This document shows, piece after piece, positions 2,791 to 47,134 of a stretch of DNA of 64,000 nucleotides. The DNA is taken from NCBI RefSeq assembly GCF_044647545.1, contig NZ_CP172818.1, one strand, 5' to 3'. How positions within the stretch are numbered: position 1 is the stretch's first letter; each line of letters begins with the position of its first letter. Source of the DNA: Escherichia coli. Lineage in GTDB: Bacteria > Pseudomonadota > Gammaproteobacteria > Enterobacterales > Enterobacteriaceae. Under the pieces are notes generated by a model. The model had not been told where the DNA came from. It did not search any database and saw only the letters and a program-made list of their open reading frames with translations. Both the position numbers and the translations under genes were made by a program.

Positions 2791-3333
2791 ATGCGAATTA
2801 AACCAGACGATAACTGGCGTTGGTATTACGATGAAGAGCACGATCGAATGATGCTCGATTTAGCCAATGGTATGCTATTTCGCTCACGTTTTGCGCGCAA
2901 AATGTTGACTCCAGATGCCTTTTCTCCCGCAGGCTTTTGCGTTGACGACGCCGCGCTCTATTTCTCATTTGAAGAAAAATGCCGCGATTTTAATTTATCT
3001 AAAGAACAAAAAGCCGAACTGGTGCTTAATGCGCTGGTAGCAATTCGTTATCTCAAACCGCAAATGCCGAAAAGCTGGCATTTTGTTTCCCATGGTGAAA
3101 TGTGGGTGCCCATGCCGGGCGATGCGGCCTGCGTTTGGTTGAGCGACACTCACGAGCAAGTCAATTTGCTGGTCGTTGAATCTGGCGAAAATGCCGCACT
3201 ATGCCTGCTGGCACAACCCTGCGTTGTTATTGCGGGTCGCGCGATGCAGTTGGGCGACGCCATCAAAATCATGAACGACAGGCTGAAACCGCAGGTTAAT
3301 GTTGACAGCTTCAGCCTCGAACAGGCAGTTTAA
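2791..3333 (+). CDS. zapC: Cell division protein ZapC
   Basis: 180-aa ORF starting [24 protein letters not shown]; located after pyrD as in K-12. Confidence 0.9.
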
Positions 3334-4536: not shown

Positions 4537-6645
4537 ATGAATTCTCTGTTTGCCAGTACGGCCCGTGGGCTGGAAGAGCTGTTAAAAACTGAACTGGAAA
4601 ACCTGGGGGCCGTTGAATGCCAGGTGGTTCAGGGTGGGGTCCATTTCAAGGGCGACACACGGCTTGTTTACCAGAGCCTGATGTGGAGCCGCCTGGCCTC
4701 GCGTATTATGTTGCCGCTGGGCGAGTGCAAGGTTTACAGCGATTTAGACCTCTATCTCGGTGTTCAGGCGATCAACTGGACAGAGATGTTTAATCCTGGC
4801 GCGACCTTCGCTGTCCACTTCAGTGGTTTGAATGACACCATACGCAACAGTCAGTACGGTGCGATGAAAGTGAAAGACGCGATCGTCGATACTTTCACGC
4901 GGAAAAATCTGCCGCGTCCAAATGTTGATCGCGATGCGCCGGATATCCGCGTTAACGTCTGGCTGCATAAAGAAACCGCCAGTATCGCCCTTGATCTCAG
5001 TGGTGATGGTTTACATCTGCGTGGCTATCGTGATCGTGCTGGAATTGCGCCGATCAAAGAAACCCTGGCAGCCGCGATTGTTATGCGATCCGGCTGGCAG
5101 CCAGGAACACCGCTGCTCGATCCAATGTGTGGTTCTGGTACGTTGCTGATTGAAGCGGCGATGCTGGCGACCGATCGCGCACCAGGCTTGCACCGTGGAC
5201 GTTGGGGCTTTAGCGGCTGGGCGCAGCATGATGAAGCTATCTGGCAGGAAGTGAAAGCGGAAGCGCAAACTCGTGCCCGTAAAGGCCTGGCGGAGTACAG
5301 CTCCCATTTCTACGGTTCGGACAGTGACGCACGTGTGATTCAACGTGCGCGCACTAACGCCCGTCTTGCGGGGATTGGTGAACTGATCACCTTTGAGGTG
5401 AAAGATGTCGCGCAACTGACCAATCCGCTGCCGAAAGGGCCGTACGGTACAGTGTTGAGCAACCCGCCATACGGTGAACGTCTGGACAGCGAACCGGCGC
5501 TGATTGCGCTGCATAGTCTGCTGGGCCGAATCATGAAAAACCAGTTCGGTGGCTGGAATCTCTCTTTGTTTAGTGCCTCGCCGGATCTGCTCAGCTGCCT
5601 GCAGCTGCGTGCAGACAAACAGTACAAGGCGAAAAACGGCCCGCTGGACTGCGTACAGAAAAACTACCATGTTGCCGAAAGCACACCAGACAGCAAACCG
5701 GCGATGGTAGCGGAAGACTACGCCAACCGTCTGCGTAAGAACCTCAAAAAATTCGAGAAGTGGGCTCGCCAGGAAGGGATTGAATGTTACCGCCTGTATG
5801 ACGCCGATCTGCCGGAATATAACGTTGCCGTTGATCGTTATGCCGACTGGGTGGTGGTGCAGGAGTATGCGCCGCCAAAAACTATTGATGCGCACAAAGC
5901 GCGTCAGCGTCTGTTCGATATTATCGCTGCAACCATTTCGGTACTGGGGATTGCGCCAAACAAACTGGTGCTGAAAACCCGTGAACGCCAGAAGGGCAAA
6001 AATCAGTACCAGAAACTGGGCGAGAAGGGCGAGTTTCTCGAAGTCACCGAATATAACGCTCACTTGTGGGTGAACCTGACGGATTACCTCGATACCGGTC
6101 TGTTCCTCGATCACCGTATCGCCCGTCGTATGCTCGGTCAGATGAGCAAAGGCAAAGATTTCCTCAACCTGTTCTCTTATACCGGCAGCGCCACCGTGCA
6201 TGCGGGATTAGGCGGCGCGCGCAGCACCACCACCGTGGATATGTCGCGTACTTATCTGGAGTGGGCAGAACGCAACCTGCGTCTGAATGGCTTAACCGGG
6301 CGTGCGCATCGCCTGATTCAGGCCGATTGCCTGGCGTGGCTGCGTGAGGCAAATGAACAGTTCGATCTGATCTTTATCGATCCGCCAACCTTCTCTAACT
6401 CAAAACGAATGGAAGATGCGTTTGATGTTCAGCGCGATCATCTGGCGCTGATGAAAGATTTGAAACGTCTGCTGCGTGCTGGTGGGACGATCATGTTCTC
6501 GAACAACAAACGCGGTTTCCGTATGGATCTCGACGGTCTGGCGAAACTGGGACTGAAAGCACAAGAAATTACGCAAAAAACGCTCTCCCAGGATTTCGCC
6601 CGTAACCGCCAGATCCACAACTGCTGGCTGATTACCGCAGCCTGA
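4537..6645 (+). CDS. rlmL: 23S rRNA m2G2445/m7G2069 methyltransferase RlmKL
   Basis: 702-aa [28 protein letters not shown]...; SAM-MTase motifs ([16 protein letters not shown]). Confidence 0.95.
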
Positions 6646-17831: not shown

Positions 17832-18461
17832 ATGAAAAGCCTCTCCTATAAGCGGATCTATAAATCACAAGAATACCTGGCAACGTTGGGCACAATTGAA
17901 TACCGATCATTGTTTGGTAGTTACAGCCTGACCGTTGACGACACGGTGTTTGCGATGGTTTCTGATGGTGAGTTGTATCTTCGGGCTTGTGAGCAAAGTG
18001 CACAGTACTGTGTAAAACATCCGCCTGTTTGGCTGACATATAAAAAGTGTGGCCGATCCGTTACCCTCAATTACTATCGGGTTGATGAAAGTCTATGGCG
18101 AAATCAACTGAAGCTGGTGCGTCTGTCGAAATATTCTCTCGATGCAGCGCTGAAAGAGAAAAGCACGCGCAATACCCGGGAAAGACTGAAAGATTTGCCC
18201 AATATGTCTTTTCATCTGGAAGCGATTCTCGGGGAGGTGGGGATTAAGGATGTACGGGCGTTACGTATACTAGGGGCAAAAATGTGTTGGTTGCGACTGC
18301 GGCAGCAAAACAGTCTGGTGACAGAAAAGATTCTGTTTATGCTTGAAGGGGCCATTATCGGCATTCATGAAGCTGCGCTCCCGGTGGCACGCCGCCAGGA
18401 GCTTGCAGAATGGGCTGACTCTCTTACGCCGAAACAGGAGTTTCCTGCGGAACTTGAGTAA
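17832..18461 (+). CDS. sxy: Competence regulator Sxy/TfoX
   Basis: 209-aa ORF MKSLSYKRIYKSQEYLATLGTIEYRSLFG... Confidence 0.9.
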   Translation: MKSLSYKRIYKSQEYLATLGTIEYRSLFGSYSLTVDDTVFAMVSDGELYLRACEQSAQYCVKHPPVWLTYKKCGRSVTLNYYRVDESLWRNQLKLVRLSKYSLDAALKEKSTRNTRERLKDLPNMSFHLEAILGEVGIKDVRALRILGAKMCWLRLRQQNSLVTEKILFMLEGAIIGIHEAALPVARRQELAEWADSLTPKQEFPAELE

Positions 18462-26757: not shown

Positions 26758-27036
26758 ATGTCGAAAGTCTGCATAATTGCCTGGGTTTACGGGCGAGTTC
26801 AGGGCGTAGGATTCCGCTACACCACGCAGTACGAAGCGAAAAAACTGGGACTAACCGGGTACGCCAAAAATCTTGACGATGGCAGCGTGGAAGTGGTTGC
26901 CTGCGGTGAAGAAGGGCAGGTGGAAAAATTAATGCAGTGGTTAAAAAGTGGCGGCCCGCGTTCAGCGCGTGTGGAACGGGTGCTTAGCGAGCCGCATCAT
27001 CCCTCCGGGGAGTTAACGGATTTTCGTATCCGTTAA
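26758..27036 (+). CDS. yccX: Acylphosphatase
   Basis: 92-aa [41 protein letters not shown] (acylphosphatase signature VQGVGFR). Confidence 0.9.
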
Positions 27037-37310: not shown

Positions 37311-38576
37311 ATGAAAGCGATCTTAATCCCATTCTTATCTCTTCTGATTCCGTTCACCCCGCAATCTGCATTCGCTCAGAGTGAGCCGGAGCTGAAGCTG
37401 GAAAGTGTGGTGATTGTCAGTCGTCATGGTGTGCGTGCTCCAACCAAGGCCACGCAACTGATGCAGGATGTCACCCCAGACGCATGGCCAACCTGGCCGG
37501 TAAAACTGGGTTGGCTGACACCGCGCGGTGGTGAGCTGATCGCCTATCTCGGACATTACCAACGCCAGCGTCTGGTAGCCGACGGATTGCTGACGAAAAA
37601 GGGCTGCCCGCAGCCTGGTCAGGTCGCGATTATTGCTGATGTCGACGAGCGTACCCGTAAAACAGGCGAAGCCTTCGCCGCCGGGCTGGCACCTGACTGT
37701 GCAATAACCGTACATACCCAGGCAGATACGTCCAGTCCCGATCCGTTATTTAATCCTCTAAAAAATGGCGTTTGCCAACTGGATAACGCGAATGTGACTG
37801 ACGCGATCCTCAGCAGGGCAGGAGGGTCAATTGCTGACTTTACCGGGCATCGGCAAACGGCGTTTCGCGAACTGGAACAGGTGCTTAATTTCCCACAATC
37901 AAACTTGTGCCTTAACCGTGAGAAACAGGACAAAAGTTGTTCATTAACGCAGGCATTACCATCGGAACTCAAGGTGAGCGCCGACAATGTCTCATTAACC
38001 GGTGCGGTAAGCCTAGCGTCAATGCTGACGGAGATATTTCTCCTGCAACAGGCACAAGGAATGCCGGAGCCGGGGTGGGGAAGGATCACTGATTCACACC
38101 AGTGGAACACCTTGCTAAGTTTGCATAACGCGCAATTTTATTTACTACAACGCACGCCAGAGGTTGCCCGCAGTCGCGCCACCCCGTTATTGGATTTGAT
38201 CATGGCAGCGTTGACGCCCCATCCACCGCAAAAACAGGCGTATGGTGTGACATTACCCACTTCAGTGCTGTTTATCGCCGGACACGATACTAATCTGGCA
38301 AATCTCGGCGGCGCACTGGAGCTCAACTGGACGCTTCCTGGTCAGCCGGATAACACGCCGCCAGGAGGTGAACTGGTGTTTGAACGCTGGCGTCGGCTTA
38401 GCGATAACAGCCAGTGGATTCAGGTTTCGCTGGTCTTTCAGACTTTACAGCAGATGCGTGATAAAACGCCGCTATCATTAAATACGCCGCCCGGAGAGGT
38501 GAAACTGACCCTGGCAGGATGTGAAGAGCGAAACGCGCAGGGCAGTGTTCGTTGGCCGGTTTTACGCAAATCGTGA
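37311..38576 (+). CDS. appA: Periplasmic phytase / acid phosphatase AppA with frameshifted, truncated C-terminus
   Basis: ATG at 37311 gives MKAILIPFLSLLIPFTPQSAFA signal peptide; RHGVRAP histidine acid phosphatase motif. Frame ends ...NAQGSVRWPVLRKS*, whereas the +1 frame reads LAGFTQIVNE (the expected AppA C-terminus, recalled) before running into GC-rich DNA. Confidence 0.85.
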   Translation: MKAILIPFLSLLIPFTPQSAFAQSEPELKLESVVIVSRHGVRAPTKATQLMQDVTPDAWPTWPVKLGWLTPRGGELIAYLGHYQRQRLVADGLLTKKGCPQPGQVAIIADVDERTRKTGEAFAAGLAPDCAITVHTQADTSSPDPLFNPLKNGVCQLDNANVTDAILSRAGGSIADFTGHRQTAFRELEQVLNFPQSNLCLNREKQDKSCSLTQALPSELKVSADNVSLTGAVSLASMLTEIFLLQQAQGMPEPGWGRITDSHQWNTLLSLHNAQFYLLQRTPEVARSRATPLLDLIMAALTPHPPQKQAYGVTLPTSVLFIAGHDTNLANLGGALELNWTLPGQPDNTPPGGELVFERWRRLSDNSQWIQVSLVFQTLQQMRDKTPLSLNTPPGEVKLTLAGCEERNAQGSVRWPVLRKS

Positions 38577-38581
38577 ATGAA

Positions 38582-38840
38582 CGGGGGGACGACGGGCGAC
38601 GGGGGCCGCGGGGAAGACGACGGGACGCGGGGCTATCCGCCAGCGCGGCTGTTCGCGTTGCGGGTCGCGGCGCGGGCCCCGTGGTGCGCCTGCCGCTGGG
38701 CGCCTGGCCTGCTCGGCCTGCGGGGGTTGGTGCGGCGGGGCCGCTTGTCCCGCCGGGCGCCGCGCGCGTCCGCGGGCGGCCGTCGGCGCTCGGCGCGGGC
38801 GGGCCGCGCCTCGGGGGCCGCCCCCCCCGGGCGCCTCTCC
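38582..38840. other. Compositionally foreign GC-rich block (about 85% GC) at the appA-cspH junction; origin unknown
   Basis: Counted 80-93% GC per 60-nt line against roughly 50% in flanks; G/C homopolymer runs (8 C at 38821-38828); open frames on both strands with Arg/Gly/Pro/Ala-rich translations and no RBS. Confidence 0.8.
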
Positions 38841-39956: not shown

Positions 39957-40119
39957 AGAGTTAAAAAAACAAGCCGAAACGGAAATCGCTGACTTTATCG
40001 CGCAAAAAATCGCCGAGCTGAACAAGAATACAGGGAAAGAAGTCTCTGAAATTCGCTTCACCGCACGAGAAAAAATGACCGGGCTTGAAAGTTATGATGT
40101 CAAAATCAAAATAATGTGA
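39946..40119 (+). CDS. gnsA: GnsA (secG-null suppressor, unsaturated fatty-acid regulator)
   Basis: GTG start at 39946; 57-aa ORF (M)NIEELKKQAETEIADFIAQKIAELNKNTGKEV...; under the track threshold. Confidence 0.75.
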   Translation: MNIEELKKQAETEIADFIAQKIAELNKNTGKEVSEIRFTAREKMTGLESYDVKIKIM

Positions 40120-40167
40120 TTTTGTGAACATCACCCCGTGCGAGGTGATGTTCCGCTTGTTGCTAAT

Positions 40168-41241
40168 TTAGTGACCAATCATTGGCGCTTGCGGAATTAA
40201 GCGTCGGTACAATTCCTGCGGCACCGGGCTTTGCCATACTCCCGCATACATTGCGTAACCAATCACCGCAAACATAATCCCCAGAACCAGTAGCGTCATT
40301 AACCAGCCAGACAACGCAAAGGCTTTTTTATTTGCCGCAGGTTTTTGCAGTGAAAAGGTTAATGTTGAGGCTACCGGACATGACTCTACGCAAGTCATAC
40401 AGCCGGTACATTCCACTGTTCGTACCTGAATTAATTTATCGACCGGGATCCGTGATGGGCAATTTTTTGCGCATTTGCCACAGTCGATACAACTTTCGGC
40501 ATTGCGACGAATCTTAAACGGCGATAATAGCGAAACCATGCCCATCAGCGCGCCATATGGGCAAAGATAACGACACCAGGCATGGCGAATAAACAGGCTG
40601 GCAATCAGCAAAACGGTCACGCTGATTAATGTCGCGGTCCCCATATGACGAAAGAAATCGAGCATTTTAACGTCCATCACCACGCTGTAGGGCGACAACA
40701 TAAAATAGTGAATCGCCTGAGCGGGCATCAATAACGCGATATAGAGAAAAAAACTCAACAGCAAATACTTCACGCCGCGCAGAGGAATATCCAGCCAGCG
40801 GGGAAGGACACATTGCCGACCAAACAGTTTGTTACCGAGATCGCCGATTAATTCAGAAAGCGTACCAACCGGGCATAACCATGAGCAAAAGGCCTTTTTG
40901 AGTAATAGACTGATGACGATAAAAGCGACCAATAACAGCATCGCGGCGGCGTGGACGGACGGTAACTGACCTGTTGCAAGGCTATATTTCAGATTCATCA
41001 GACCGGCAATCGGTAGCCAGCCTTCGATACCTCCCGGTCTGGCGACAAATGTCGTACTACCTGCCGTTTCGTAATAGCGCACCCAATACCAGAACGTGAT
41101 GGCAATATAAATATTCATTGCCAACAGTAATAATTGCGTCGCTTTACGCCAGGTCGTGGCATTGCGCCAGTCATTCCACGGTAATTTGCCGCCCGTCGTG
41201 CCTGGCCGCCGCTGCCAGCGGGTTCTTTTTTTCTCTGCCAT
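40168..41241 (-). CDS. yccM: Membrane-bound 4Fe-4S ferredoxin-like protein (NapH/MauN family)
   Basis: 357-aa ORF MAEKKRTRWQRRPGTTGGKLPWNDW...; two CxxCxxCxxxCP clusters. Confidence 0.9.
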   Translation of the reverse strand: MAEKKRTRWQRRPGTTGGKLPWNDWRNATTWRKATQLLLLAMNIYIAITFWYWVRYYETAGSTTFVARPGGIEGWLPIAGLMNLKYSLATGQLPSVHAAAMLLLVAFIVISLLLKKAFCSWLCPVGTLSELIGDLGNKLFGRQCVLPRWLDIPLRGVKYLLLSFFLYIALLMPAQAIHYFMLSPYSVVMDVKMLDFFRHMGTATLISVTVLLIASLFIRHAWCRYLCPYGALMGMVSLLSPFKIRRNAESCIDCGKCAKNCPSRIPVDKLIQVRTVECTGCMTCVESCPVASTLTFSLQKPAANKKAFALSGWLMTLLVLGIMFAVIGYAMYAGVWQSPVPQELYRRLIPQAPMIGH

Positions 41242-41323
41242 GATTTTGCCAGTCCGTTAAGTTGCATACCAAATGCCACTATTCTAGTTGTTCTTAACTG
41301 GCTGATATTGATTCAAATCGCGT

Positions 41324-44056
41324 TCAGGTCTTTCTTATTAACCATGCTTCCAGAGCGGCAACACTGCGTGTAATTTCTTCGTGTGGAAGGGGGGCAGATA
41401 ATGGCTGCTGCTCCAGTTGTGCGCAAAGCTGGCTGGCGCTACGCATTCCCAGACTCGAGCAACTGCTTTTTAGCTGATGTGCGGCACGCTTTATTTTTTC
41501 GCTGTTCTGGCTGGCGCGGGCAATGTCGATTTCATCGAGAAGCGGCAGGGCATGTTGTTTAAATAATATCAGCCATTCGTGGATCTTCTCCGTCCCCATC
41601 AACTGAGCATCTTCATTGAGTTGCGATACATCCAGCGGTTGATCGTTATTGACTTGTAGTTGGAGATAGTGCGCCAGTAACTGACCGAGCACTTCACGCG
41701 GCACCGGTTTAGGGATAATCCCGCGAAATAATGAACTGGTACGCTGGCGCAACGTTTCGTCGATGACATGAGCGCTAAAGCCAATCAAAACCAGCGACGG
41801 ATATTGCTGTGCCAGTTGCCGGGCAAGCGTGATGCCGTCGATATCGGGCAGATCAAAATCCACCAGTGCGGCAGCAAACGGTTCACTATTTTGCAACGTC
41901 TCTATCGCGTGCGCGGCATTTCCTACCGCAACGACCTGCGCACCACTGGTAGTCAGCATCTCGACGGTAATTCGCTGGGTTAGCGGGTTATCTTCAATTA
42001 ACAGCAAACGTAAACCGTCCAGACGCACCGCCTGATTGACTGTTTTTGGCACGGGAGCAGTGGCAACACGTAACGGCAAGCGTAAACAAAAACAGCTTCC
42101 AACTTCCGGCGTGCTGGTGGCGCTCAGTTCGCCGCCCATCGCCTGGGCCAGACGGCTACTGATAGTCAGCCCCAGCCCGGTGCCGCCGCGTTTGCCGCTT
42201 ACCTGCACAAATGGCTGGAAGATTTCTGCCAGTTTCGCGGGATCAATACCGCAGCCGCTGTCTTCCACTTCGACCAGCCATTGCTCGCCATCAGTGCGGC
42301 TACGTAAAACGATCTGCCCTTCGTCAGTAAAACGCAGGGCGTTGCTCAACAGGTTGGTTATAACCTGACGAATACGTCGCGGATCGCCCATTAACGCGGT
42401 CGGTACATCGTCGGCAATTGCTGTTGCCAGGTGAATCGGGCGACCTTTAACCCGTCCGCTCATTAATTGCAGGGTACTTTCCAGCAGCGGGCGCGGTTCA
42501 AAGGGCTCATCGCTGACCGAAACATTCTTGCCACCCGCTTCGATAGCCGAATAATCGAGAATATCGTTGAGGATGGTCAGCAACGATTCACCAGAGTCGG
42601 TAATTGCCCGCAAATCATCACGCTGGGCATTAAGTGCGGGGTTATCTGCCAGCAGTTGCGCGGTGCCAAGAATACCGTACAGCGGTGTGCGGATCTCATG
42701 GCTCATCGCCGCCAGAAACGCCGATTTTGCCTGGCTGGCTTTTTCTGCTTCCGCCCGTGCCTGTCGGTGTTCTATCACCAGTTCCTGCAATTCAGCTGTA
42801 CGCGCTTTGACCTGCGCCGCCAGCTGTTCACGGTGGCGATTCAGTGCATGAACACTGCTGCGAAACGCATCCATCAGCCGCCCGATGGTGTCCAGCTCCC
42901 GCACGCCAGCGGTTTCCGGGAAAGGGGAGTTGATATCACCGTCCAGCAGCCGTTGCAGCGCCTGCGTTTGTTCGGCAAGTGGACGCGTGACTGAGCGATA
43001 AACCACGCGCCAGAGGATCAGAATCAGTGCGCAAAGTGAAACCATCCCCAGCAATAACAGGCTGTATTGCCCGCGTGCACTGGCTTTTTCCAGATGCGCC
43101 AGTCCGTGCTGATTACGCAGCTCAATGGTGTCGACCAGCTGACTGACTTCGCTACTAAACTGCGCGAACTGGGCGATGTTATTTTGGGCGAGAGTTTGCA
43201 GGCGATTGCTGATTTCACTGTCCTGCTGATACAGCGCCAGCAAATCGCTATATTGGCTAACGGTAGTTAACGTTGTTGCGACCTGAGCACGAACTCCCGG
43301 ATCTTCAATGCGTATTTGCCGACGTTGCAGAATTTTCACCGCATTATTGAGCTGGTGTTCCAGCGTTGCTGCATTTTTCTGGATCTGCTCCAGCCCAAGA
43401 TTCATCACCATTTGCTGCACCCGCAGGGCGCTAAGGCGCAGTTCATTCATCTGGTTAACATACTCAAGATCGATATCAATCAGCCGATCGAGTGCACTTT
43501 CTGCGGCCTGACGCTGATGTTGTTCGATCAAATCGTAAATCCCGGCCTGGGTCGCTCCGGCGGAAGTTGCCGCATTATTCGCCTGACCTTGCGCCAGGCG
43601 TGCGATTTCATCGGCGGCGGCGACTATCTGCTGACTGAGTCGCTGTTGTTGCTGGCGCAGTTGCAAACGCTGCCCCACCAGTTCCCCTTGCTGACGTAAC
43701 GAACGGGAGATCTCCTGCTCCTGTTGTTCAATAGCGGTGGTATCAAAACCTTGTTCCCGTAACGCTTGCAGCAACGCATTAATCTTCAGGCTTTGTGCGG
43801 TGAGCATTCGCCCCTGCGCCTGCCACATCTTTTCGTTATCGGCACTGGTCAGGTTCTGCGCGGCGAAAAGTTCCCAGGCGCTGGCTTCGCTCAACTGGCG
43901 CGCCATATTCATGGTAGGAATCAATGCCTGAGTGTTGTCTTTTTCCACTTGGCTGATAAAGCGCAGGTTGTACCATCCCACCAGGGTACTGGTCAGGGTT
44001 AACAGCGCCATCAGGGCAAAGCCCATCCAGAGTCTTCGGGTCAGGGTTAAATTCAC
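41324..44056 (-). CDS. torS: TMAO sensor hybrid histidine kinase TorS (start approximate)
   Basis: Long ORF with HisKA (SHEIRTPL), HATPase, receiver and HPt regions; probable GTG start at 44056 giving (M)[18 protein letters not shown]; start codon choice not verified. Confidence 0.85.
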
Positions 44057-44138
44057 GGTCGGTGCACTTAAGATGAAAAAGGTTGAGTCGCAAAGCGGAA
44101 TGCATCTAGCATAAAGCCTTATTATTGATGAGGCTATC

Positions 44139-45167
44139 ATGCGCGTACTGCTATTGTTACTTCTTTCCCTTTTCATGTTATCGGCATTTTCGGCTGATAA
44201 CCTGTTGCGCTGGCATGATGCGCAGCATTTCTCGGTGCAACCCTCTACGCCGCTTAAAACCAAACGTGCATGGAAACTGTGCGCGCTTTATCCCAGCCTG
44301 AAAGATTCATACTGGTTATCGTTGAACTATGGTATGCAGGAGGCTGCTCGCCGCTACGGTGTGGATTTAAAAGTGCTGGAGGCAGGCGGCTACAGCCAGT
44401 TGGCTACCCAGCAAGCACAAATCGACCAGTGTAAACAGTGGGGCGCAGAGGCCATTTTGCTCGGTAGTAGCACGACGTCATTTCCCGACCTGCAAAAGCA
44501 GGTAGCAAGTCTGCCGGTGATCGAACTGGTAAATGCTATTGATGCTCCCCAGGTGAAAAGCCGCGTTGGTGTACCCTGGTTTCAGATGGGCTATCAACCA
44601 GGACGATATCTGGTGCAATGGGCGCACGGTAAACCACTGAACGTGCTGTTGATGCCCGGACCCGATAACGCCGGGGGCAGTAAGGAGATGGTCGAGGGTT
44701 TTCGCGCAGCCATTGCCGGAAGCCCGGTACGTATTGTTGATATTGCGCTTGGCGATAACGATATTGAAATCCAGCGTAACCTGTTGCAGGAGATGCTGGA
44801 GCGCCATCCAGAAATCGACGTCGTTGCCGGAACGGCCATTGCGGCAGAGGCGGCAATGGGGGAAGGGCGTAACCTGAAAACACCGCTTACCGTGGTGTCG
44901 TTTTATCTTTCACATCAGGTGTATCGCGGGCTGAAGCGGGGAAGAGTGATTATGGCTGCCAGCGATCAAATGGTCTGGCAGGGGGAACTGGCGGTTGAGC
45001 AGGCCATCAGGCAATTACAGGGGCAATCGGTGTCTGATAATGTCAGCCCACCGATTTTAGTTCTGACGCCGAAAAATGCCGACCGCGAACATATCCGCCG
45101 CTCGCTGTCACCGGGGGGATTTCGTCCGGTCTATTATTATCAGCACACATCAGCGGCTAAGAAATAA
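44139..45167 (+). CDS. torT: Periplasmic TMAO-binding protein TorT
   Basis: 342-aa [28 protein letters not shown]... (signal peptide); divergent from torS. Confidence 0.9.
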
Positions 45168-45832
45168 CCTTCGCCATGTTGTGTCACCAGTAAATCCGCG
45201 CTGAGTTTATGGCGTAAACGACGAATTAACACATCGACGGTGCGCAGGTCAGGGTTTTCCACCCGACGCGCAGAGAGCATACGCCGCAGACGTTCACGGC
45301 TAAGAATTTCGCCCGGATTCGTCACAAATGCCACCAACATTTCATACTCTGCGCGGGTCAGTTTAATCGGCTCGCCATCTCGTTCCAGCGTATGGCGCGA
45401 CACATTCAGGCAATAACCGGCAAAGCGATAGCAGTTGTCCTGAGTGTGCGGTTGAGCTTGTCGCGCGAGGTCGATTCGCCAGAGCAGATTTTTCACCCGT
45501 ACTACCAGTTCGCGCAGTTCCAGCGGTTTGGTGACGTAATCGTCTGCGCCCATTTCCAGTCCAACAATACGGTCAATCCGATCGCTGCGTCCGGTAACCA
45601 GAATAATCCCCACCGTTGAGCGTTCTCGCAGGGCGCGGGTTAACATCAGGCCATTTTCATCGGGCAAATTGATATCCAGCAGAATTAAATCCACCGACTG
45701 ATTCTGCATAATTTCCCGCAGCCCGGCACCGCTCGCCGTAACGGAAACGGTATACCCCTCCTGAGTGAAGTAGGATTGTAATCGCGCCTGGGTAACCGGC
45801 TCATCTTCAACAATAACAATGTGATGTGGCAT
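45140..45832 (-). CDS. torR: Response regulator TorR (OmpR family)
   Basis: 230-aa ORF MPHHIVIVEDEPVTQARLQSYF...; receiver plus winged-helix domains. Confidence 0.95.
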   Translation of the reverse strand: MPHHIVIVEDEPVTQARLQSYFTQEGYTVSVTASGAGLREIMQNQSVDLILLDINLPDENGLMLTRALRERSTVGIILVTGRSDRIDRIVGLEMGADDYVTKPLELRELVVRVKNLLWRIDLARQAQPHTQDNCYRFAGYCLNVSRHTLERDGEPIKLTRAEYEMLVAFVTNPGEILSRERLRRMLSARRVENPDLRTVDVLIRRLRHKLSADLLVTQHGEGYFLAADVC

Positions 45833-45850
45833 CAGAGGGTTTTACTCATT

Positions 45851-45913
45851 CTGTTCATATCTGTTCATATTCTGCCGTAAGCCGTTCATCCTGACCAGTG
45901 CCGCTGTTCATAT
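45851..45913. promoter_or_regulatory. TorR binding sites (four tor boxes) in the torR-torCAD intergenic region
   Basis: Decamers ctgttcatat (45851-45860), ctgttcatat (45861-45870), ccgttcatcc (45882-45891), ctgttcatat (45904-45913); matches known tor-box consensus CTGTTCATAT. Confidence 0.85.
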
Positions 45914-45961
45914 TTACTCATTAAGATCGCTTCACTAAACCATAATTTTACAGGGGCTATT

Positions 45962-47134
45962 ATGCGGAAACTCTGGAACGCGCTACGCCGACCCAGTGCT
46001 CGTTGGTCGGTACTGGCGCTGGTCGCTACTGGGATTGTGATTGGCATTGCGCTGATTGTATTGCCACACGTTGGGATCAAAGTCACCAGCACAACCGAAT
46101 TTTGTGTCAGTTGCCACAGTATGCAACCGGTGTATGAAGAATATAAACAGTCGGTGCATTTCCAGAACGCCTCCGGCGTGCGAGCTGAATGCCATGACTG
46201 TCATATCCCGCCGGATATTCCAGGCATGGTGAAGCGCAAACTGGAAGCGAGCAACGACATTTACCAGACCTTTATTGCCCACTCCATTGATACACCAGAG
46301 AAATTTGAAGCCAAACGCGCGGAACTTGCCGAGCGTGAATGGGCGCGAATGAAAGAAAACAACTCGGCAACCTGCCGCTCCTGCCATAACTACGATGCGA
46401 TGGACCATGCGAAGCAGCATCCTGAAGCGGCGCGTCAGATGAAGGTGGCAGCGAAAGATAATCAATCCTGCATCGACTGTCATAAAGGTATTGCCCACCA
46501 GTTACCGGATATGAGTAGTGGCTTCCGTAAGCAGTTCGATGAGCTGCGCGCCAGTGCTAATGATAGTGGTGACACGCTGTACTCCATTGATATTAAGCCG
46601 ATTTATGCGGCGAAAGGCGATAAAGAAGCCTCTGGTTCTCTGCTGCCTGCTTCGGCAGTGAAAGTCATTAAACGTGACGGCGACTGGCTGCAAATTGAAA
46701 TCACTGGCTGGACGGAAAGTGCAGGACGTCAGCGTGTACTCACCCAATTCCCAGGTAAACGCATCTTTGTTGCCTCGATTCGTGGTGATGTGCAGCAGCA
46801 GGTGAAAACGCTGGAGAAAACCACCGTTGCCGACACCAATACCGAGTGGAGCAAGTTGCAAGCCACTGCGTGGATGAAGAAAGGCGACATGGTAAACGAT
46901 ATCAAACCGATCTGGGCTTATGCGGATTCGTTGTACAACGGCACCTGTAACCAGTGCCACGGCGCACCGGAAATCTCTCACTTTGACGCTAACGGCTGGA
47001 TCGGCACGCTCAACGGCATGATTGGCTTTACCAGCCTCGATAAACGTGAAGAACGCACCTTGTTGAAATATCTGCAAATGAATGCGTCTGATACCGCAGG
47101 TAAGGCTCACGGCGATAAGAAGGAAGAAAAATAA
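45962..47134 (+). CDS. torC: Pentahaem c-type cytochrome TorC
   Basis: 390-aa ORF MRKLWNALRRPSARWSVLALVATG...; multiple CxxCH haem motifs (CVSCH, CHDCH, CRSCH, CIDCH, CNQCH). Confidence 0.95.
   Translation: MRKLWNALRRPSARWSVLALVATGIVIGIALIVLPHVGIKVTSTTEFCVSCHSMQPVYEEYKQSVHFQNASGVRAECHDCHIPPDIPGMVKRKLEASNDIYQTFIAHSIDTPEKFEAKRAELAEREWARMKENNSATCRSCHNYDAMDHAKQHPEAARQMKVAAKDNQSCIDCHKGIAHQLPDMSSGFRKQFDELRASANDSGDTLYSIDIKPIYAAKGDKEASGSLLPASAVKVIKRDGDWLQIEITGWTESAGRQRVLTQFPGKRIFVASIRGDVQQQVKTLEKTTVADTNTEWSKLQATAWMKKGDMVNDIKPIWAYADSLYNGTCNQCHGAPEISHFDANGWIGTLNGMIGFTSLDKREERTLLKYLQMNASDTAGKAHGDKKEEK

Follow-up and report, generated by a model that had tools for sequence, protein, structure and literature searches.

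The 28-bp convergent overlap of torT and torR in Escherichia coli, a native arrangement that is probably the passive consequence of a missing spacer

The genes torT and torR of Escherichia coli were found to share their last 28 bp on opposite strands in a stretch of 64,000 nucleotides (contig NZ_CP172818.1; the whole stretch is referred to as the window). The locus is best explained, with good confidence, as the native and annotated E. coli tor locus, in which the overlap is a passive consequence of the lack of a spacer between two convergent genes. The overlap is already known as the standard annotated arrangement and is of an ordinary kind, and the shared 28 bp of coding sequence do not look like a dedicated regulatory element. 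According to the proposed mechanism, the torT frame would pass the torR stop, stay open for eight further codons and then end at a stop made by the antisense of the conserved Gly-Tyr codons of TorR, and the eight overlapped TorT residues would be a dispensable tail whose sequence follows from selection acting on TorR's C-terminal wing. As there is no room for a terminator between the two genes, both mRNAs would read on into the partner gene, each extending as untranslated RNA antisense to the partner until Rho acts; the Rho stop, ~430 nt into torT, is documented for the torR strand and presumed for the torT strand.

Identity of the genes and reality of the overlap

torT (44139..45167, plus strand), encoding a periplasmic TMAO-binding protein of 342 aa, and torR (45140..45832, minus strand), encoding an OmpR-family response regulator of 230 aa, were identified from the ORF list, their translations and the family models NF008185 and NF008034, respectively. 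The tail-to-tail coding overlap occupies 45140..45167 on both strands (28 bp) and comprises TorT residues 335-342 (QHTSAAKK) and TorR residues 223-230 (YFLAADVC), each plus the stop. The 3' end of torT reads tat tat tat cag cac aca tca gcg gct aag aaa TAA, and that of torR reads GGT TAT TTC TTA GCC GCT GAT GTG TGC TGA (...GYFLAADVC and stop). The torT stop TAA (45165..45167, plus strand) lies antisense to the last base of the TorR Gly222 codon (GGT) and the first two of the Tyr223 codon (TAT), and the torR stop TGA (45140..45142, minus strand; tca as read on the plus strand) is embedded in the TorT codons Tyr334-Gln335 (taT CAg). The overlap is in phase (123:213), in the notation taken from PMC2174442, with third codon positions of one gene opposite third codon positions of the other.

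TorT scored 492 bits against the NCBIfam equivalog NF008185 (cut-off 200) and 437 bits against TIGR02955 (cut-off 310). TorR scored 425 bits against the NCBIfam equivalog NF008034 (cut-off 275), with residues 1-230 aligned to positions 1-231 of the 231-position profile; its second-best family match was ArcA, under ArcA's own cut-off, and its residues 1-121 (receiver domain) are identical to PDB 1zgz. With both equivalog models passed, the names torT and torR in an earlier note on this DNA, made from the sequence alone, are right. In the K-12 MG1655 RefSeq record (NC_000913.3), torT is at 1056261..1057289 (plus strand) and torR at 1057262..1057954 (minus strand), with an overlap of 28 bp, and the PGAP annotation of ECONIH1, from which the window is one SNP apart over 40000-50000, has a 28-bp overlap as well. 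The junction sequence was found in 5406 of the 5426 complete E. coli genomes. The coordinates and the length of the overlap put forward in the earlier note agree with the ORF list and with both genomes, the comparison with annotated K-12 coordinates that it had proposed returned an identical overlap, and the arrangement is native as it had supposed, since the same geometry is annotated in K-12 MG1655 and ECONIH1.

Errors of 3'-end extension underlie many long convergent overlaps in databases (PMC2478687), and an annotation artefact, in which the torT or the torR frame is mis-called at its 3' end and the true genes do not overlap, was considered for that reason; its probability is negligible. 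The 3' ends of both genes are fixed by stop codons, the same two stops are present in K-12, ECONIH1 and 13 other species/strains, the TorR equivalog match reaches the last residue, TorT has 342 aa in 119 of the 120 best E. coli protein clusters listed by the TorT homologue search, and neither gene has a frameshift relative to its relatives. Mis-called stops were accordingly ruled out by the family-model coverage and by the conservation of both stops. The overlap is independent of gene-calling choices because stops, unlike starts, cannot be re-assigned; corrected start or stop assignments, which the earlier note had named as what might remove the overlap, leave it in place. torT and torR are a genuine convergent overlapping pair, both frames being real genes with stops on opposite strands and bases in common.

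torS, the divergent region and the tor boxes

The Tor (TMAO) module is represented in the window by TorS, TorT and TorR, all of which pass their family cut-offs, and by tor boxes. The tor boxes lie in the torR-torC intergenic region (45851..45913, plus strand) as decamers CTGTTCATAT, which, from the established knowledge of the tor promoter, we take to be TorR-binding sites. Exact copies are at 45851, 45861 and 45904 and are the sole exact matches in the 64-kb window; a degenerate copy, CCGTTCATCC, is at 45882.

torS, encoding an unorthodox sensor kinase, is annotated from a GTG at 41324..44056 on the minus strand (NF008543, 1893 bits, cut-off 982, profile positions 1-909 of 914) and is divergent from torT according to the ORF list and the ECONIH1 annotation. 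The divergent intergenic region (44057..44138) measures 82 bp to the annotated GTG and 112 bp to the functional ATG. When the torS start was determined by lacZ translational fusions, only the ATG 30 nt downstream of the GTG was active (Carey et al. 2019, PMC6814406). This ATG maps to 44026 in the window and is Met11 of the annotated protein, the annotated GTG being at 44056; since only the downstream ATG is used, reference annotations over-extend TorS by 10 residues, and the experiment speaks against both the annotated GTG start and the '82-bp' gap that is measured from it. The spacing of about 80 bp between the torS and torT starts, as claimed previously, is correct for the annotated GTG and incorrect for the functional ATG (PMC6814406). 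The region also contains a shared IscR site and the HK022 attB site (PMC6814406).

At the 3' end of torS (41313-41345), the window differs from K-12 by a 1-nt deletion and a substitution near the stop, and ...EAWLIRKT replaces ...EAWLHKKDLNAI before the stop. The identical torS of ECONIH1 is called a 'frameshifted' pseudogene by PGAP. The allele is common to 1078 of 5401 complete genomes of E. coli, and the TorS family model is still matched at 909 of 914 positions; in all likelihood it is a lineage variant that remains functional.

Frequency of convergent overlaps

For the count of convergent pairs, the ECONIH1 annotation was moved onto the window, collinearity was checked and stop codons were verified. 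Of 14 convergent pairs in the 64-kb window, four overlap. Besides torT/torR, these are zapC/ycbX (3330-3333) and yccX/tusE (27033-27036), with overlaps of 4 bp formed by two facing TAA stops (TTAA), and sxy/yccS (18424-18461), with an overlap of 38 bp that is longer than that of torT/torR. The arrangement had been called unusually compact, which is not borne out by these numbers or by the literature, in which the class is well described and accounts for 7% (3,035/42,055) of the well-characterised prokaryotic overlaps (PMC2478687). How the convergent overlaps of E. coli are spread over the phases is accounted for by a simple stop-codon-mutation model, and phase (123:213) is the rarest of the three phases, yet it makes up 22% of the E. 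coli convergent overlaps longer than 4 bp (PMC2174442). The fit of that model to E. coli was counted in favour of the reading of the torT/torR overlap as passive.

Two further differences from ECONIH1 were observed elsewhere in the window. At 38582-38827, a stretch of ~246 nt with 80-88% G+C lies at the appA 3' end, adjoining cspH; it truncates the appA frame at 38576 and abolishes the convergent overlap of appA and cspH, which is 13 bp long in the ECONIH1 annotation. Neither ECONIH1 nor any of the 5,426 complete E. coli genomes contains the stretch, the best matches covering the flanks only, and it had no match in the plasmid collection and none in Rfam; possible origins include a foreign insertion and an assembly artefact. 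At 51913-53169, between cbpA and agp, the window has an intact ORF of 418 aa, and ECONIH1 has an IS1 insertion and a truncated hypothetical gene there; the window is therefore from a strain closely related to ECONIH1 and not from ECONIH1 itself.

The junction in relatives

The TorT genome scan covered 18 Enterobacterales loci, with three loci added via distant TorT representatives; the tor loci of Salmonella, Vibrio and Shewanella were not recovered by it. torT and torR were convergent neighbours in all 18 scanned loci. The 28-bp overlap was present in Escherichia (coli, albertii and whittamii), four Citrobacter, three Providencia and Enterobacter ludwigii, with TorT identity down to 64%. The overlap measured 21 bp in Serratia sp. 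H1w, 54 bp in a Serratia liquefaciens MAG and 4 bp in Edwardsiella hoshinae, and three other Edwardsiella species had a gap of 7 nt. At one distant locus (L023, TorT identity 44%), a 31-bp overlap in the same phase was found, with the torT TAA opposite the regulator's Gly-Tyr codons, and at another (L024, TorT identity 45%), torT and the regulator gene were separated by 1.27 kb with an acetyltransferase gene. The overlap is conserved beyond close relatives, though it is not universal, as the 7-nt gap of Edwardsiella shows. Those relatives in which a gap or a 1.3-kb insert separates the genes show that the locus can do without the coding overlap. The convergent order, kept down to 44% TorT identity and often accompanied by an overlap with the torT stop at the homologous Gly-Tyr codons, could reflect selection for a tight junction and not inertia.

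The C-terminus of TorR (HGEGY[FL][FL]...) was constant across the lineages. TorT was conserved through ...FRPVYxYQ, and beyond this point the tail changed wherever the junction changed, the tails by junction being HTSAAKK, PAPKAE, PASPRQGNGAG, SADVGG and VTAEPNR. When the three plus-strand frames entering torR were followed to the first antisense stop, overlaps of 21, 28 or 65 nt were obtained, and the predicted 21- and 28-nt overlaps both match lengths seen in relatives. The junction with the Edwardsiella gap (~5000-5035 of loci L014, L015 and L019) and the E. coli junction with the overlap (45135-45170 of the window) differ by a single 35-nt indel with TCAG on both sides. Taking these 35 nt out of the Edwardsiella sequence gave ...LYQATSAARK and a stop, which is the 28-bp type (as we read the sequences). 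Such an indel with TCAG microhomology would be a single-step route between gap and overlap, by deletion or by insertion.

The Providencia loci (L010, L011 and L013; Morganellaceae) have the same 28-bp junction, with TorT 70-72% and TorR 85-89% identical to E. coli/Citrobacter; the values of the Edwardsiella and Serratia loci (L014-L020) are lower (TorT 58-70%, TorR 79-86%). The closeness of Providencia to E. coli/Citrobacter hints at a possible horizontal transfer of the tor regulatory cluster.

Constraint on the shared codons

The TorT family model TIGR02955 stops at residue 333. The crystallised TorT of Vibrio parahaemolyticus (3o1h) ends one residue past the position aligned to E. coli residue 332, as does the homologue 4yhs, and when 1.8 billion representatives were searched, the alignments of distant TorT homologues went no further than about residues 329-335. 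TorT residues 335-342 therefore form a tail outside the conserved fold. Pfam Trans_reg_C spans TorR residues 153-225, and the overlap therefore holds the last three residues of the wing (Tyr223-Phe224-Leu225) and a five-residue tail. The motif GEGY[FL][FL]-[AG]-[AS] was present at the TorR end in every relative, overlapped or not.

Among the 14 loci with the 28-bp overlap, the shared third codon positions were variable at 9 of 10 sites and the other positions at 4 of 18; the adjacent 30 nt that belong to torR only gave 9 of 10 and 2 of 20, respectively, in the same loci. The torT stop was TAA or TAG in all 14 loci, tracking the synonymous choice of GGT or GGC in torR, and the torR stop TGA was invariant across them. 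In phase (123:213), positions 1 and 2 of the torT codons complement positions 2 and 1 of the torR codons, and selection on TorR alone therefore accounts for the conserved look of the TorT tail. From these comparisons, the eight overlapped TorT residues may themselves be dispensable.

The near invariance of TSAAKK in Escherichia, Citrobacter and Providencia would also be expected if the TorT tail (...TSAAKK) had its own function and the overlap were kept since both peptides are needed. Such dual selection is very improbable, as the conservation of TorR alone fixes the TorT tail in this phase, the tails at other junctions (PAPKAE, PASPRQGNGAG, SADVGG and VTAEPNR) are unrelated, and the Vibrio TorT crystallised with TorS has no such tail. 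Under the preferred reading of a passive overlap, torT/torR is a worked example of a gene that extends to a stop supplied by the antisense of its neighbour's conserved motif, with an overlapped tail carried along by the neighbour's constraint. For engineering, an indel at the torT 3' end alters torR too. Published strains with a torT-lacZ fusion are recorded as torR-deleted as well.

Transcription termination at the junction

In a terminator scan around 45140-45167, no intrinsic-terminator-like site was found near the torT or the torR stop. Four folds around the overlap, on either strand, were no better than shuffled sequence (z-scores from -0.17 to -1.74), and no Rfam match was obtained in 43800-46100, even at E <= 1. 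A bidirectional intrinsic terminator was rejected as a candidate, the junction having no G+C-rich hairpin with A-/U-tracts above background.

On the minus strand, a C-rich and G-poor tract past the torR stop and antisense to torT (44780..45059) is a plausible Rho loading region; in the 80-nt windows from +81 to +360 after the torR stop, the fraction of C was 0.31-0.42, that of G was 0.16-0.26 and the C/G ratio peaked at 2.6. A Rho termination region was mapped in K-12 at 1056830 on the minus strand, designated 'antisense torT' (Adams et al. 2021, PMC7815308, supplementary file 2), with upstream/downstream reads of 39/14 without the Rho inhibitor bicyclomycin (BCM) and 52/81 with it, a Rho score of 4.34 and p = 2.2e-5. 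The equivalent position in the window is 44708 (minus strand), 432 nt past the torR stop. The most natural interpretation is that transcription of torR continues into torT and adds to the mRNA an untranslated antisense extension, which Rho brings to an end. Given a weaker C-rich tract 100-240 nt beyond the torT stop, Rho termination of the torT mRNA within torR is plausible.

A weak sigma-70-like match (TCGGCA-17-TAAAAT, 9/12) was observed at 45082-45054 on the minus strand, just past the torR stop inside torT; such 9/12 promoter-like matches were no more frequent at the junction than in shuffled sequence. An internal antisense promoter, and not the torR promoter, could be the source of the Rho-terminated minus-strand RNA.

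Termination could in principle also be driven by collision, with the converging polymerases stopping each other at the torT/torR junction, as was suggested for hundreds of convergent genes in E. coli (bioRxiv 10.1101/2022.10.23.513370), and a weak imperfect hairpin does lie over 45145-45184. This hairpin is, however, no stabler than shuffled sequence (z from -0.8 to -1.7) and lacks U/A tracts on its flanks, the minus-strand signal is bicyclomycin-sensitive and located ~430 nt past the junction, and termination was reported to be less efficient for weakly expressed pairs (bioRxiv 10.1101/2022.10.23.513370). Bidirectional termination of this kind was considered very improbable.

Possible coupling of expression

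The earlier note had raised the possibility that the antisense overlap couples the expression of the two genes. torT-torR is among the 165 convergent excludons of MG1655 reported with ExcludonFinder (NAR 2025, PMC12288877, Table 1), for which overlapping RNA-seq coverage in at least 50% of 58 samples was the criterion; zapC-ycbX, sxy-yccS and yccX-tusE are on the same list, and p19 validation was declared unfeasible for convergent excludons by the authors of that work (PMC12288877). By this listing the torT and torR transcripts overlap in MG1655, and the K-12 Rho region inside torT on the torR strand lends support. A literature search returned no pair-specific experiment on torT/torR coupling or reciprocal expression, and antisense coupling of the two genes may occur, being plausible in outline. 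Any such coupling would stem from the transcript overlap of hundreds of nt and not from the 28 coding bp.

In an excludon-type coupling, the complementary 3' regions would lead to interference or RNase III cleavage, one gene would lower the other, and TorR autoregulation would be linked to the TorT level. The lack of a terminator separating torT and torR, the minus-strand Rho-dependent region ~430 nt inside torT, the presence of the pair on the MG1655 list (PMC12288877) and the widely conserved convergent order are all consistent with it. Several points weigh on the other side. The listing is defined by overlapping read coverage; TorT and TorR are needed together in the same cell, which makes mutual exclusion biologically odd; torS and torT expression is exceptionally low under aerobic conditions (PMC6814406), so that encounters of polymerases should be rare; the locus L024, where 1.27 kb with a further gene separates torT from the regulator, indicates that close juxtaposition is not obligatory; and even a real coupling would depend on read-through and not on the 28-bp coding overlap. 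Coupling of this type was therefore judged unlikely, though it is the least unlikely of the alternatives. Strong mutual exclusion in particular seems unlikely because TorT and TorR act together, torS and torT are low aerobically, and some relatives do with the two genes spaced by a gap or by an inserted gene.

The ratio of TorT to TorS reportedly governs the cell-to-cell variability and bet-hedging of torCAD expression, as found by Carey, Goulian and co-workers. Read-through between torR and torT, limited by Rho ~430 nt inside torT, might set the very low TorT level or add noise to it and in this way shift the TorT:TorS ratio; this was regarded as a long shot. If it were true, TorR autorepression would feed back on the co-receptor of its own sensor via antisense transcription. 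The passive overlap stays the preferred explanation of the junction.

Comparison with known systems

The closest system is the tor locus of K-12 MG1655 (torT, b0994; torR, b0995), in which the order is identical (torS leftward, torT rightward, torR leftward, torCAD rightward), as are the 28-bp overlap and the 82-bp annotated torS-torT gap. TorT is 98% and TorR 100% identical between K-12 and the window, and the differences are strain-level SNPs, e.g. TorT residue 333, which is Tyr in the window and Phe in K-12. Within the window, zapC/ycbX, sxy/yccS and yccX/tusE have the same geometry as torT/torR; the two genes of each of those pairs are unrelated in function, while torT and torR serve the same signalling pathway.

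With the excludons (PMC12288877), including mscL-arfA (PMC10070815) on the same list, torT-torR has in common that it is a convergent pair with overlapping transcripts. The hallmarks of an excludon are reciprocal expression and RNase III processing; torT-torR, in contrast, is known by coverage, and its products cooperate in one pathway and are not opposed. Like the convergent overlaps of prokaryotes at large (Lillo & Krakauer 2007, PMC2174442; Palleja et al. 2008, PMC2478687), that of torT/torR is shorter than 60 bp, is formed 3' to 3' and is found in several genera, and as in that class one gene runs on to the next antisense stop. The detail that is special to torT/torR within the class is that the stop of the extending gene is the antisense of the conserved Gly-Tyr motif in the wing of an OmpR-family regulator.
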